A stretch of DNA of 17,462 bases from a virus (taxonomy: Duplodnaviria; Heunggongvirae; Uroviricota; Caudoviricetes): the IMG/VR virus record IMGVR_UViG_2711768066_000009, positions 1 to 17,462 of that record. One strand, given 5' to 3'. Shown here piece after piece: positions 4,856 through 12,993 of the stretch. The number at the start of each line of letters is the position of its first letter. Position 1 is the first letter of the stretch. The translations under genes and the position numbers were made by a program. The notes beneath the pieces were generated by a model. It was not told the origin of the DNA, searched no databases, and saw only the letters and a list, made by a program, of their open reading frames with translations.

Positions 4856-5218
4856 TTAATGACCTGCTGCGCGGAGTTTTCCGTCAGGTTCACCGGCAAG
4901 AGTCAGTAATTGTCCCTGGTCTTCCTGCAGAATAGTCAGGCGACCACCGCGATTGACATACATCGGCGTTTCGGTGGTGTCTTCTTCGGAAATTTTCCCG
5001 CGGTTAGTCGGGCGAACATATGAGAGTTTGTGTTTGATTTTCACACGGTTCTCATCAAATGGTTCGATTTCCAGGTTGAGTGAGACCTTCCCTTTGGTTT
5101 TCGTGTTCATCACACCGGAAGCGACTTCACTGAGAACTGCGCCGATTTTGGTTTCAAATACGCCGCCGTCCAGCTCCCCGATAAATGCCTGCACATCAGT
5201 ACTGCGTTCGCTAGCCAT
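4856..5218 (-). CDS. hypothetical phage early protein (YfdP-like), first gene of leftward early operon
   Basis: ORF track extends to 5449, but the internal ATG at 5218 (MASERSTDVQAFIG...) has a strong GAGGAG RBS and gives 120 aa; the upstream extension overlaps a structured terminator region. Confidence 0.55.
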   Translation of the reverse strand: MASERSTDVQAFIGELDGGVFETKIGAVLSEVASGVMNTKTKGKVSLNLEIEPFDENRVKIKHKLSYVRPTNRGKISEEDTTETPMYVNRGGRLTILQEDQGQLLTLAGEPDGKLRAAGH

Positions 5219-5352
5219 TTTGCTGCTCCTCATCATATCGACCCTGCAAGGTCGGTTAGTTTCTCCACAAAACAGAGAAGAACACCTGCGGTGGCAGCCG
5301 CCCGGATGGATTGGGTTATGAGCCCGTCGTCCGGTGATGCTCTTCTCTGTTT

Positions 5353-5401
5353 TGTAAAAAGAGCGGTACCAGCCGGAAGCAAGTGTACAAACTGGTACCG
5401 C
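5353..5401 (-). terminator. candidate intrinsic terminator in the leftward leader (tL-like)
   Basis: On the minus strand: 10-bp GC-rich stem (CGGTACCAG... / ...CTGGTACCGC, plus coords 5363-5372 and 5392-5401), 19-nt loop, then CTCTTTTTAC U-run. Confidence 0.45.
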
Positions 5402-5811
5402 CAAAGCAGTGGCTGTTGTGGTGGGGTTGTCACTCAGGCGTATGGTCAACCTGACAATCCGGTGTCCTCAACGGGGAAAGAGTAACCCCGCCATACTTAC
5501 CGCCGCGCCATTTCGCGGATTACCACAACGCTGAGAGCACTTAGCCAGTTACGGCACCACACTTTGTCGCTGCTCCATAAATGCCCTCATCGTTGCACCC
5601 TGGTCTATTCCCAGGCGTCAAACCGAATCGCCACGCTGGTTAGGCGTCTTATCAGCATCCTCATTGACTTGCACATTCCGGCTACCTGGTTTGTTTGCCC
5701 GAGCAAGGAGTGGATTGTCCCCTTTAACGTCCCCAGACCGCTAACGACGCATGTGCCATACGCCGTGTTACAAGCAAATTTTGTTTAATCTTCCTGTGGC
5801 ATGTTTCTTTT

Positions 5812-5845
5812 AGATACATTATGTATCTTAAGGGTACATTGTCAA
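5812..5845 (-). promoter_or_regulatory. PL-like leftward promoter with overlapping palindromic operator
   Basis: Minus strand reads TTGACA (-35, plus 5840-5845), 16-nt spacer, CATAAT (-10, plus 5818-5823). Perfect 17-bp palindrome AGATACATTATGTATCT (5812-5828) overlaps the -10 and start site. Confidence 0.5.
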
Positions 5846-5849
5846 GTAT

Positions 5850-5872
5850 AAAAAAACCTGCCGAAGCAGGTT
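5850..5872 (-). terminator. intrinsic terminator downstream of the repressor gene
   Basis: Minus strand: GCAGGTT... stem (7 bp, AACCTGC/GCAGGTT, 4-nt loop) followed by a run of 7 U (plus-strand A-run 5850-5856); lies between cI stop (5884) and the PL -35. Confidence 0.6.
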
Positions 5873-5883
5873 ATAAATATTGA

Positions 5884-6558
5884 TTAGGCCTTTATTTTGT
5901 ATCTTCTTGGTTTTCCTGAGAAAATTACTGTACCAATTATAGAGCAATTACCGTTAATCTTAATGTAAGGCTCAGGCCAGTTTGGGTTTAATGCTTTGAG
6001 ATAACGCTGTGTTCCATCTTCTATCAATCGCTTGAAGGTGGTTTCGCCTGTATCGTGCATCAATGCAATAACGTCGTCACCGTGGCAGGCAGGGACTTCG
6101 GGATCAACAAAAATCATGTCTCCCGGGCGATACTCATCAATCATTGAATCACCAATCACCCGCAAGATATAAGTCATTTCGCCACAGGGTACAGGGCAGG
6201 GATAAGTTTCTGCTGTGCTCAAATCAACCTCAGAATAGCCAACTTCTTTCCATGCTCCGGCCTGTACCCATGATATGACAGGGACTAACGTTATTTGTTT
6301 GTTAGTGATTGAAACATCAGGTTTTTTTGTGATGTTCGTGGTCTGGTGTTCTTGATCAAGCCATCCGACAGGCAGGTCGAAACATTTTTCGATGTGCCGT
6401 GCCATGCTGTCACCGATATTTTTAGTAGCACCATCTCCCATAAACCTGCTGGTCTGGGTTGGCTCGCGATCAATCATGGTGGCAAAGGAAGAATTCCCGC
6501 CAACACCATCTCTCAGTTTTCTGGCGTTAGACCGCCGGATGTCATGGACTGTTTTCAT
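5884..6558 (-). CDS. cI: CI-like prophage repressor (N-terminal HTH, C-terminal S24 LexA-like peptidase domain)
   Basis: 224-aa ORF; C-terminal region (VIGDSMIDEYRPGDMIFVD...) matches the S24 autocleavage domain pattern (Ser in GDSM). Position divergent from cro; weak or absent SD, consistent with a leaderless transcript. Confidence 0.85.
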   Translation of the reverse strand: MKTVHDIRRSNARKLRDGVGGNSSFATMIDREPTQTSRFMGDGATKNIGDSMARHIEKCFDLPVGWLDQEHQTTNITKKPDVSITNKQITLVPVISWVQAGAWKEVGYSEVDLSTAETYPCPVPCGEMTYILRVIGDSMIDEYRPGDMIFVDPEVPACHGDDVIALMHDTGETTFKRLIEDGTQRYLKALNPNWPEPYIKINGNCSIIGTVIFSGKPRRYKIKA

Positions 6559-6648
6559 AAAGAAATTAAAACCTTTGTACCGATAAGGTACAAGTATCTT
6601 GAAGGTTCATATTAATCATGTAATATGTATATCGGAGGTACATATTGT
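6559..6648. promoter_or_regulatory. immunity-region divergent promoters and operators (OR/PR/PRM-like)
   Basis: 19-bp palindrome TTGTACC-GATAA-GGTACAA (6575-6593). Rightward promoter candidate TTGAAG (6599-6604), 16 nt, TAATAT (6621-6626). Imperfect second site GGTACATATTGTATG (6636-6650). Leftward -10 candidate TTTAAT directly upstream of the cI ATG. Confidence 0.55.
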
Positions 6649-6849
6649 ATGAAAGCGTATTGGGACTCTTTAACCAAAGAACAGCAGGGCGAGTTGGCCG
6701 GAAAAGTTGGCTCAACACCAGGCTACTTACGGCTGGTTTTCAATGGTTATAAAAAAGCCAGTTTTGTGCTGGCTAAAAAACTTGAGCAATGCACGTCAGG
6801 TGCAATTACGAAATCTGACTTAAGACCGGATATCTATCCGAAAGATTAA
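6649..6849 (+). CDS. cro: Cro-like HTH regulator (YdaS-like)
   Basis: Start at ATG 6649 with GGAGG upstream (MKAYWDSLTKEQ...); small HTH protein; C-terminal ITKSDLRPDIYP resembles YdaS/Cro-family proteins; divergent from cI. Confidence 0.7.
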   Translation: MKAYWDSLTKEQQGELAGKVGSTPGYLRLVFNGYKKASFVLAKKLEQCTSGAITKSDLRPDIYPKD

Positions 6850-6880: not shown

Positions 6881-7444
6881 ATGAGGCGAACCGTGGGTAA
6901 GCATCACTGGAAAGTAGAAAAACAGCCTGAGTGGTACGTGAAAGCTGTCAGAAAAACTATCGCGGCGTTGCCGGGGGGTTACGCTGAAGCTGCTGAGTGG
7001 CTGGATGTAACAGAGAACGCTTTATTCAACCGCCTTCGTGCAGATGGCGATCAGATTTTCCCGCTGGGATGGGCAATGATTTTACAGCGCGCGGCTGGCA
7101 CTCACTACATTGCGGATGCTGTCGCACAGTCTGCTGGTGGGGTGTTTGTATCGCTTCCTGAAATTGAGGAAGTAGAGAACGCCGATATAAACCAGCGCCT
7201 GCTGGAAGTCATCGAACAGATCGGGAGTTACTCAAAGCAGATTCGTTCGGCAATCGAAGATGGGGTAGTGGAGCCACACGAGCAGACAGCAATTAATGAT
7301 GAGTTGTATCTGTCAATTTCGAAGCTCCAGGAGCATGCAGCACTGGTCTACAAAATCTTTTGCGCTCCAGAAAAGAGTGACGCCCGCGAGTGTGCAGCTC
7401 CGGGCGTCGTGGCGTTTTGTGTCTGTGGAGAAACTAACGCATGA
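6881..7444 (+). CDS. CII-like/YdaT-family regulatory protein
   Basis: 187-aa ORF immediately after cro in the rightward operon; start may instead be the in-frame GTG at 6893 (GAGG upstream). Family call is from position and general resemblance only. Confidence 0.5.
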   Translation: MRRTVGKHHWKVEKQPEWYVKAVRKTIAALPGGYAEAAEWLDVTENALFNRLRADGDQIFPLGWAMILQRAAGTHYIADAVAQSAGGVFVSLPEIEEVENADINQRLLEVIEQIGSYSKQIRSAIEDGVVEPHEQTAINDELYLSISKLQEHAALVYKIFCAPEKSDARECAAPGVVAFCVCGETNA

Positions 7445-8277
7445 ACAGTTTAACGGCAAATAACCGTTTGTCGCAACAGCTGGTGGTCAGTGTCGCTGAA
7501 CACCTGTTGTTACGGCATGAATGCAGATTACCAAATCACCTGGCTGTAAGTAACCACAGAGAACTTTACCTGACTGTGGGGGGCGAGTTGTGCAGGAACT
7601 TAACCGCTGGTTTCGTGACGGAAGAGGACTTTATGTTCATGTTATTCGTTGGGAGCCAGAAACACAGCGCGTTATCTATCTTCGCAAAGACTACCCGCAT
7701 GAGTGCTTTAGTCCTTTGTGGAAATTCAGGCGTGATTTTGTTGAGTGTGAAGGACCACCAGCACATTGATTCTGCCATTCCGGGACGTTACACTGTTCAG
7801 GCACCTTATAAAGCGGGTGTCGGGATTGGCGTCCTGGAATTCAATATAGAGCATAACCGCGCTCATGCGGTTTTTTCGTATCATGAGCATTGCTACGTCC
7901 AAATTATGGTGGGGCGTGCAGGGGCATCGCAAGATGCGCCGGGTTCTATGTTGACCGGTTACGCCAACCCTGTACGTCTCACCACCTCTGTGATTGGCGT
8001 CCCATGTGGTGAGTTCTTTGAATTCAACATAGGGGCTGTCACCATGACTACTCTCCCAACCCTCGCTCGTCTGAATGATGAAGACTTACATAAACTCAGT
8101 TATGTAACAACTGCACTACGTGCTCTGCGCAAGGTAACTCTTTCGGATCCGCAGGCGCATCAGGTTCTGGTAGAAACACTTCTTAACTTGCAGGCTGAAC
8201 GTATTCGTTTGGCGGATAAGGCTAATTTTCATATTCACCGTCTCCTGAATATCAGCGGAGGGCATCGTCATGCTTAA
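7441..8277 (+). CDS. hypothetical protein (278 aa), unknown function
   Basis: Sole long ORF in this interval; ATGA overlap with the upstream gene, and its stop overlaps the ATG of the next ORF; no recognisable motifs. Confidence 0.6.
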   Translation: MNSLTANNRLSQQLVVSVAEHLLLRHECRLPNHLAVSNHRELYLTVGGELCRNLTAGFVTEEDFMFMLFVGSQKHSALSIFAKTTRMSALVLCGNSGVILLSVKDHQHIDSAIPGRYTVQAPYKAGVGIGVLEFNIEHNRAHAVFSYHEHCYVQIMVGRAGASQDAPGSMLTGYANPVRLTTSVIGVPCGEFFEFNIGAVTMTTLPTLARLNDEDLHKLSYVTTALRALRKVTLSDPQAHQVLVETLLNLQAERIRLADKANFHIHRLLNISGGHRHA

Positions 8278-12604: not shown

Positions 12605-12621
12605 TTTTGTGGAGAAAGTTG

Positions 12622-12993
12622 ATGCGTGATATTCAAATGGTTCTTGAACGTTGGGGGGCATGGGTGGCAAATAATCACGAGGATGTGGAATGGTCATCTG
12701 TTGCTGCAGGTTTTAAGGGATTAATTCCTTCGAAAGTAAAATCCCGCCCGCAATGTAGCGATGACGATGGCCTGATCATTAGCTCTGCGATGACAGTTCT
12801 TAAGAAAAAGGAACCGTATCAATACGAATTACTGGAAATGTATTATGTGTATGGGGTTACATTACGGGCGTTGGGGGTAAAACTGGGGATATCACTTAAT
12901 CAGGTTGTTATCAGACTGCAGAAAGCTGAAGGGTTTATTGACGGTTGTCTGGCAATGTTGGGGGTATCTTTAGAAATTGATTGTTACATATAG
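12622..12993 (+). CDS. Q: Q-like late-gene antiterminator
   Basis: Start at ATG 12622 (GGAG upstream; MRDIQMVLERWGAWVANNHEDV...); resembles phage-21/82-type Q (QuuD-like) proteins as I recall; positioned just before the late region. Confidence 0.75.
   Translation: MRDIQMVLERWGAWVANNHEDVEWSSVAAGFKGLIPSKVKSRPQCSDDDGLIISSAMTVLKKKEPYQYELLEMYYVYGVTLRALGVKLGISLNQVVIRLQKAEGFIDGCLAMLGVSLEIDCYI

Follow-up and report, generated by a model that had tools for sequence, protein, structure and literature searches.

Conserved RNA modules, including a putative variant of the DicF family, form the untranslated leader that follows PL in an N-less lambdoid prophage

The dicBF operon of the Escherichia coli K-12 prophage Qin belongs to a lambdoid element and is an early operon under repressor control. 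A 190-nt DicF species is reported to have a 5' end made by RNase III, and the 53-nt DicF is attributed to RNase E (doi 10.1101/2023.04.14.536235, citing Faubladier 1990; PMC5069750). Processing by both enzymes, together with Hfq binding, is known for Qin DicF only (doi 10.1101/2023.04.14.536235; PMC5069750). A GGCGG...CCGCC hairpin followed by a U-run serves the operon as an internal terminator before its protein genes (doi 10.1101/2023.04.14.536235; PMC5069750). A 2016 study found no DicF matches in phage genome databases (PMC5069750). In the N-less lambdoid phage HK022, noncoding structured RNAs (putL and putR) lie downstream of early promoters. The put RNAs are two-stem antiterminators of ~70 nt whose cis action is directed at the beta' zinc-binding domain of RNA polymerase. 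Stable RNAs are also found embedded in longer transcripts, as with the species 1 and 2 RNAs of the T4 tRNA region, the RNase III stems of rRNA operons, and the RNase P-processed C4 RNA of P1; such cargo RNAs are cotranscribed with tRNAs, and cleavage of the flanking stems (by RNase III, RNase P, or RNase E) liberates them. Finally, GOLLD and ROOL are structured prophage RNAs of undefined function that often occur beside tRNA genes (PMC12286853).

The locus described here lies in a 17,462-nt stretch of a viral record (IMG/VR IMGVR_UViG_2711768066_000009), hereafter referred to as the window. On the basis of its gene content, the window is a lambdoid prophage that carries Q and lacks N (Table 1). 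Its closest records are phages cdtI, Ayreon, 2H10, and mEp460 and a series of Stx2c-converting phages (97 to 99% identity over the region), in none of which is an RNA annotated in the leader region. The initial annotation had proposed a near-consensus leftward promoter that opens onto a structured, ORF-poor leader without an N gene, and each of these elements was borne out. PL matches the consensus at 11 of 12 positions, an operator-like palindrome (AGATACATTATGTATCT) overlaps its -10 element, and transcription is inferred to start at about position 5811. The first credible gene start is that of the yfdP-like gene, which is backed by a Shine-Dalgarno (SD) sequence; the untranslated leader therefore runs from 5811 to 5219 on the minus strand, the extent that had been claimed. 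Minus-strand ORFs in the leader encode just 21 to 66 amino acids (aa) without any Pfam match, and none of them is an N-like arginine-rich frame. Two more in-frame ATG codons (5236 and 5233) were seen 5 to 6 codons upstream of the yfdP-like ATG (5211-5236, minus strand). The alignment of phrog_204 to this gene starts at profile position 17, so some homologues carry annotations with longer N termini.

The whole leader folded more stably than 100 of 100 shuffled sequences (z, -4.0). In sensitive blastn searches it broke into blocks, each found separately in other phages (Table 1). Thus, the leader is put together as a mosaic from four conserved RNA modules (i.e., the A core with hairpin H7, module B, a DicF-family hairpin/terminator, and module D); the homology of the blocks, their conserved structure, their modularity, and their positions are directly observed. 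Our main reading, to which we assign a probability of about 0.75, is that the leader is a noncoding "RNA operon" between PL and the first early-left gene, composed of four separable, horizontally exchanged modules and processed as proposed below.

TABLE 1 Coordinates of the features of the window and of related loci (a)
Feature	Position	Strand	Description
Early-left genes	4856-5218 (yfdP-like)		yfdP-like (phrog_204), DUF2303/yfdQ-like, HD-domain, DUF551, and Rv2179c-like exoribonuclease genes
Short hairpin	within 5219..5263	-	CGACCUUGCAGGGUCG; followed by SD GAGGAG and ATG 5218
SD	5231-5226	-	GAGGAG; serves ATG 5218-5216 (yfdP-like), first credible gene start
Module D	5264..5358	-	Three-way hairpin, 22-bp closing stem; dG -48.3 kcal/mol, z -7.3 vs shuffles
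DicF-family small RNA allele (putative) + intrinsic terminator	5356..5414	-	Scaffold UUUGGCGG...CCGC + U5
Module B	5415..5529	-	~115 nt; 7-bp closing stem GUUGUGG/CCACAAC + three arms
H7	5523..5596	-	Long closing hairpin, CAACGAUGAGGGCA / UGCUCUCAGCGUUG, variable tip
A core	5597..5766	-	~170 nt; helices H1, H2, H4, H6 + variable hairpins
5' linker	5767..5811	-	45 nt
PL promoter	5845..5818	-	TTGACA-16-CATAAT; 11/12 consensus matches
cI terminator	5872-5855		PL follows directly
LexA-type (S24) repressor gene	5884-6558	-	Immunity region
cro-like gene	6625-6849		Immunity region
CII (CP76) gene	6881-7444		Immunity region; replication genes next
Q antiterminator gene	12607-12993		Lysis genes further on
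blastn block	33-289 (leader RNA)		P1, P7, other P1-like phage-plasmids, phiV10/TL-2011b-type podoviruses
blastn block	123-232 (leader RNA)		SPN1S-type phages and mEp390
blastn block	283-405 (leader RNA)		Other lambdoid prophages
blastn block	408-593 (leader RNA)		SfV, SfII, e14, and others
Self-contained ncRNA island	2383-2910 (O157 typing phage 9, L004)		phiV10-like podovirus

a Positions refer to the window unless stated otherwise. In leader RNA coordinates, position 1 corresponds to window position 5811.

Searches for described RNA families returned little. At the gathering score, Rfam matched the whole window only with isrK and C4 antisense RNA, both outside the leader; at an E-value of ≤10, the leader had no relevant match. 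ARAGORN reported 0 tRNA/tmRNA genes in the window, and there was no Rfam tRNA match in the leader. No paper with the exact core sequences of the A core, module B, or the new hairpin was found by an exact-sequence search. The two Rfam matches (isrK, 7801-7877, 60 bits; C4, 7902-7989, 80 bits) lie on the plus strand in the early-right operon, both inside an "Ash-family" ORF (7441-8277), and have a likeness to the P1 ImmI or Gifsy IsrK module; isrK adds an intrinsic terminator of its own to the early-right operon of this N-less phage.

Given that the leader is a structured RNA downstream of PL in a phage without an N gene, it had been suggested to act like the put antiterminator RNAs of HK022. 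We consider this extremely unlikely. A covariance model trained on 16 put sequences scored its controls at 83.2 bits (HK022 putL) and 81.9 bits (putR) and found nothing in the window at an E-value of ≤10 with the filters off; the put core pattern had 0 matches in the window at ≤3 mismatches. Put-bearing viral loci (32) have two opposed copies separated by approximately 1.25 to 1.9 kb, whereas a partner at PR is impossible here because only 31 nt separate cro (ending at 6849) from cII (starting at 6881). The leader also differs from the put RNAs in being approximately eight times longer, in not being duplicated at PR, and in consisting of modules that occur far from promoters in other phages.

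The strongest likeness to a described system was found in the 3' half of the leader. Window positions 5529 to 5407 aligned with positions 1649251 to 1649373 of K-12 Qin at 89% identity (nhmmer E-value, 3e-34), and the B-like stretch of Qin ends 8 nt before dicF (1649382-1649434). Across 16 sequences, the 29 pairs of module B were 91% paired, with 8 compensatory pairs. Module B and tRNAs have the topology alone in common (i.e., a 7-bp closing stem and three arms). As in the leader, a long hairpin precedes the domain in Qin: a count of 190 nt back from the 3' end of Qin DicF leads (accurate to a few nucleotides) to C^UUCCGGUUGUGG, in the 3' strand of an H7-type long hairpin. The RNase III-made end is thus inside this hairpin, and the 190-nt species would therefore consist of module B plus DicF, with the H7-type hairpin as the RNase III site. 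At the level of sequence, module B plus the DicF-like hairpin of the window is identified as the equivalent of the Qin DicF precursor, and by analogy H7 is predicted to be an RNase III processing site. A regulatory or processed ncRNA had been among the explanations offered by the initial annotation, and it is the one that agrees with these data: the 3' half of the leader is a DicF-type locus, and the "internal terminator" corresponds to the 3' hairpin of a DicF-family small RNA. Unlike the Qin unit, that of the window directly follows PL, has no ydfABC and an A core upstream, and precedes yfdP/yfdQ-like genes rather than dicB. A further conserved block of sequence (TGGTGAATGCGGCTsAGCGCACGCGG) follows a GTTGTGG-type junction in e14 (~2370-2400) and comes just after DicF in Qin.

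The stem of the DicF-like terminator (GGCGGTACCAG/CTGGTACCGCT; 5402-5392 and 5372-5362, minus strand) encloses a 19-nt loop and is followed by a U-run at 5360-5356 (dG, -21.2; z, -3.9 versus shuffles). The terminator-like stem and U-run previously placed at 5353-5401 are thus real, with coordinates that were off by about one base. Among 128 B-containing loci, canonical DicF comes next in approximately 70 and the window type (UUUGGCGGUACCAGUUUGUACACUUGCUUCCGGCUGGUACCGCUCUUUUU) in approximately 22, while the others have P1-type, e14-type, or other loops; counting that of the window, the loop variants number at least 8. A GGCGG...CCGCC base and a U-run are common to all of these hairpin alleles. 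The Rfam DicF model (RF00039), with which Qin DicF scores 76.7 bits, had no match in 5100-5950 at an E-value of ≤10, and it is by its flanking domain and scaffold, not by this model, that the window allele is assigned to DicF. Its loop (UUUGUACACUUGCUUCCGG) is unlike that of Qin DicF, and the 5' single strand is also new. On these sequence features, we regard the window allele as a variant within the DicF family whose targeting region is new, rather than as DicF itself. The seed of DicF is complementary to ftsZ around its translation start. In a crude test of duplex energy with this region (-60 to +40), the window allele reached -32.0, which was equaled by 66% of shuffles, versus -38.5 (10%) for DicF.

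The same stretch contains the heptamer CGCTCTT, which had been described as boxA-like. It is present, but it lies in the 3' arm and U-tail of the terminator, where the sequence varies among alleles (CGCTC, CGCCC, CGACC, and CGTCC), and no boxB comes after it; a chance resemblance is the best reading. Nor does a lambda-type N/nut system otherwise appear, as the first gene after PL is the yfdP-like gene (phrog_204) and not an arginine-rich N gene. It might still be supposed, from the heptamer and from the location of the leader at the position of N, that the region is a decayed N/nut remnant, as had been suggested, or a neutral spacer. We give this next to no probability: the region is 97 to 99% conserved among numerous phages that are intact and form plaques, such as cdtI, Ayreon, and the Stx2c phages, and the heptamer is not conserved. 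Furthermore, three modules (A, B, and D) covary, and compensatory base-pair changes across many unrelated phages are the opposite of decay.

Module D contains the 14-bp inverted repeat noted earlier, which forms the core of its 22-bp stem, although the repeat lies one base to the right of the positions first given (i.e., 5268-5281 against 5341-5354). Conservation of D extends to e14, where "ymfH" is annotated over it, and to SfV, SfII, and ST64B-type phages; a small sample contained four compensatory pairs. By its position, we take it to resemble the RNase III hairpin of the lambda N leader. The K-12 e14 ymfH gene (L127 2363-2674) spans both a DicF-like hairpin and hairpin D. One alternative is that part of the leader encodes a small protein, with the 66-aa ORF at 5233-5433 as the candidate equivalent of ymfH. 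This frame is open through D in four homologues checked, is matched by PHROG family phrog_33599, and lies on the same DNA on which RefSeq places ymfH in e14. The ORF has, however, neither an SD sequence nor a conserved start codon, and it crosses the terminator hairpin. The segment upstream of D is 56 nt in one allele and 55 nt in another, which shifts the frame, and D differs between the window and e14 by 8 nonsynonymous versus 3 to 4 synonymous changes. The opposite strand matches a PHROG family as well (phrog_33599 on 5233-5433, minus strand; phrog_3651 on 5291-5485, plus strand), as would be expected of spurious ORF calls on conserved DNA. A coding role is thus very unlikely, and we read D as RNA rather than coding sequence; e14 ymfH and several PHROG "families" on such DNA are probably not genes.

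The remaining module, the A core, is the most widespread. An A-core 16-mer (GGTAGCCGGAATGTGC) was present in at least 120 viral contigs, and an MAFFT alignment of 39 representatives revealed a conserved core broken up by variable hairpins. RNAalifold gave a poor structure on the raw MAFFT alignment of the A element; compensatory changes were therefore used to define the helices by eye, and pair counts then served to test them. In the alignment of the A core and H7 (A1; 19 sequences), five helices with 36 pairs were 92% paired, and 18 of the 36 pairs had changes on both sides. These values were reached by 0 of 500 shuffles, and controls with slid partners were 29 to 46% paired. A further candidate helix, H5 (GGUG/CACC), was dropped on account of its competition with the well-supported H6. 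The core probably forms a pseudoknot, which is predicted to join the loop GGCAC with AUGUGC. Several A pairs are conserved G-U pairs (e.g., U-G at columns 30/86 in 19 of 19 sequences), so that only the strand transcribed from PL can form the structure. While the helices drift, 19 consecutive bases of the A core (GGUAGCCGGAAUGUGCAAG) are invariant. The 3' strand of H7 ends in the junction motif GUUGUGG. At the other end of the core, the 5' linker closes with ~13 nt (TTTGCTTGTAAC) that are similar to the junction just upstream of the P1 A core (TTTGGTTGTAAC).

The A core was present in 1,830 of 5,426 (34%) complete E. coli genomes, with 551 of the places on plasmids, and it was never annotated. 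Rfam 15 had no match to it over 5597-5766 at an E-value of ≤10, A homologues in 13 other loci were likewise without a family at the gathering score, and keyword literature searches found no description of the element. As far as can be told from Rfam and these literature searches, it is an undescribed and very common phage RNA. A genome-collection scan, which is a weak sample for host range as it used a 15-mer whose matches were mostly due to chance before HMM filtering, left 5 matches, all in Enterobacteriaceae. The invariant segments showed no complementarity above that of shuffled probes to the E. coli 16S, 23S, and 5S rRNAs, RNase P RNA, tmRNA, 6S RNA, or 4.5S RNA. An 8-nt match (GGUGUGAC) to 16S rRNA positions 1405-1412 was within chance, and the A-core segment concerned is not invariant. 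GOLLD and ROOL are comparable to the A core as structured prophage RNAs, but they are much larger (~600 to 800 nt), occur in other bacterial phyla, and form separate Rfam families, none of which matches the window.

The A core is always on the transcribed strand, and at least three unrelated types of temperate phages of enterobacteria (lambdoid, P1, and epsilon15-like) carry it. A same-strand tRNA abuts it in 42 of the 124 loci examined: in most tRNA-adjoining loci, a tRNA-Arg starts 1 to 8 nt past GUUGUGG (58 to 66 nt in two loci), and in the others, a tRNA with a CAU anticodon ends approximately 15 nt before the core. In mEp390, the core is again part of a PL leader. In phiV10/SPN1S-type phages, it is located in an intergenic island on the strand opposite to the structural genes, and the phiV10-like island has the order A core, H7, tRNA-Arg(UCU), and a hairpin (GGCGGTGATGG...CTATCACCGCCCTTTTTACAG) similar to the DicF scaffold. 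A true tRNA thus stands exactly at the place of module B. A TTGACA promoter-like box was seen in this island by eye, and a consensus scan gave no promoter. Depending on the locus, the 3' strand of H7 is directly followed by module B, tRNA-Arg, or other small hairpins. H7 can therefore be compared with the flanking stems of the embedded T4, rRNA-operon, and C4 RNAs, insofar as it precedes either module B or a real tRNA-Arg and would, by analogy, be a site of processing; we know of no sequence relationship between those RNAs and the leader RNAs. In some phages (L100 and L008), the variable insert of H7 holds tRNA-like T-arm sequences (GGTTCGATTCC and GGTTCAATTCC), and H7 may therefore flank tRNA-like cargo. 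Some of the window phage's relatives have hairpins related to the block shared by e14 and Qin (TGAATGCGC...) in place of module B.

P1 combines these modules in another arrangement. Like the leader, its early ban operon, which is C1 controlled and rich in tRNAs, carries them on the transcribed strand. A B-like domain with its own terminator hairpin comes right after Pban (220-327), overlapping an annotated "dicF-like region," and the A core (2514-2686) lies approximately 2.4 kb beyond it, between tRNA-Ile and ban. Unlike in the leader, the order is B and then A (as in six other P1-like contigs), the A core is without H7, and a different hairpin allele follows B.

These locations bear on the possibility that a cis-acting element of a non-put type is formed by the A core, or by the leader in its entirety, and would modify RNA polymerase or block Rho to permit terminator read-through. 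Q is present and N absent in the window, an intrinsic terminator lies downstream of the A core in the leader as well as in the phiV10-like island, and 590 nt of untranslated RNA would otherwise be open to Rho. An RNA-based mechanism has also been the subject of speculation for related N-less lambdoids (PMC12315714). The P1 A core, however, is far downstream of Pban and past the operon's own DicF-like terminator; the core is often right against tRNAs, as a discrete processed unit would be; and the early-right operon has no counterpart despite its isrK terminator. Together with the dissimilarity to put, these observations make a cis-acting role unlikely. Release of the A core as a stable trans-acting RNA from the proposed RNA operon is the most likely.

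A more far-reaching proposal, which we put forward tentatively and at somewhat less than even odds, is that the A core, with its invariant 19-nt stretch, represents an undescribed class of phage RNA that would act in trans on a host process, as a decoy for a protein or RNA or as a ribozyme. On this view, the leader as a whole would be a portable "ncRNA cassette": RNase III hairpins, along with tRNAs or tRNA-shaped modules, would separate RNA cargos that can be exchanged for one another, among them a DicF family whose seed is hypervariable.

For the RNA operon, we propose the following course of events, in which every RNase step is modeled on Qin. Upon loss of the LexA-type repressor, PL would transcribe, in succession, the A core, H7, module B, the DicF-like hairpin, and D. 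Some of this transcription would stop at the DicF-like intrinsic terminator (5356-5360). RNase III may then cut the H7 stem, as in the Qin dicBF operon, to yield an A-core RNA and an RNA of approximately 170 nt consisting of module B and the small RNA, which RNase E would trim to a presumably Hfq-dependent small RNA of approximately 55 to 60 nt. Through its new loop, this RNA would base pair with a set of targets different from that of canonical DicF. Read-through transcripts, with hairpin D at their 5' end, would express the yfdP, yfdQ, and HD-domain genes, and tight folding could shield the 590 untranslated nucleotides from Rho.

The A core is common, backed by covariation, and unannotated, and its presence in model systems (P1, UTI89, and APEC O1) makes direct experiments easy. 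The role of the 190-nt DicF species may go beyond that of a precursor, given that its 5' part is a conserved folded domain that is better conserved than the small RNA after it. The upstream domain of DicF, together with DicF-like hairpins with differing loops, occurs in active phages (cdtI, Ayreon, Stx2c phages, P1, and phiV10-like phages) and is thus not confined to defective prophages. This suggests a family of phage small RNAs in which the scaffold is fixed and the targeting loop is changeable.
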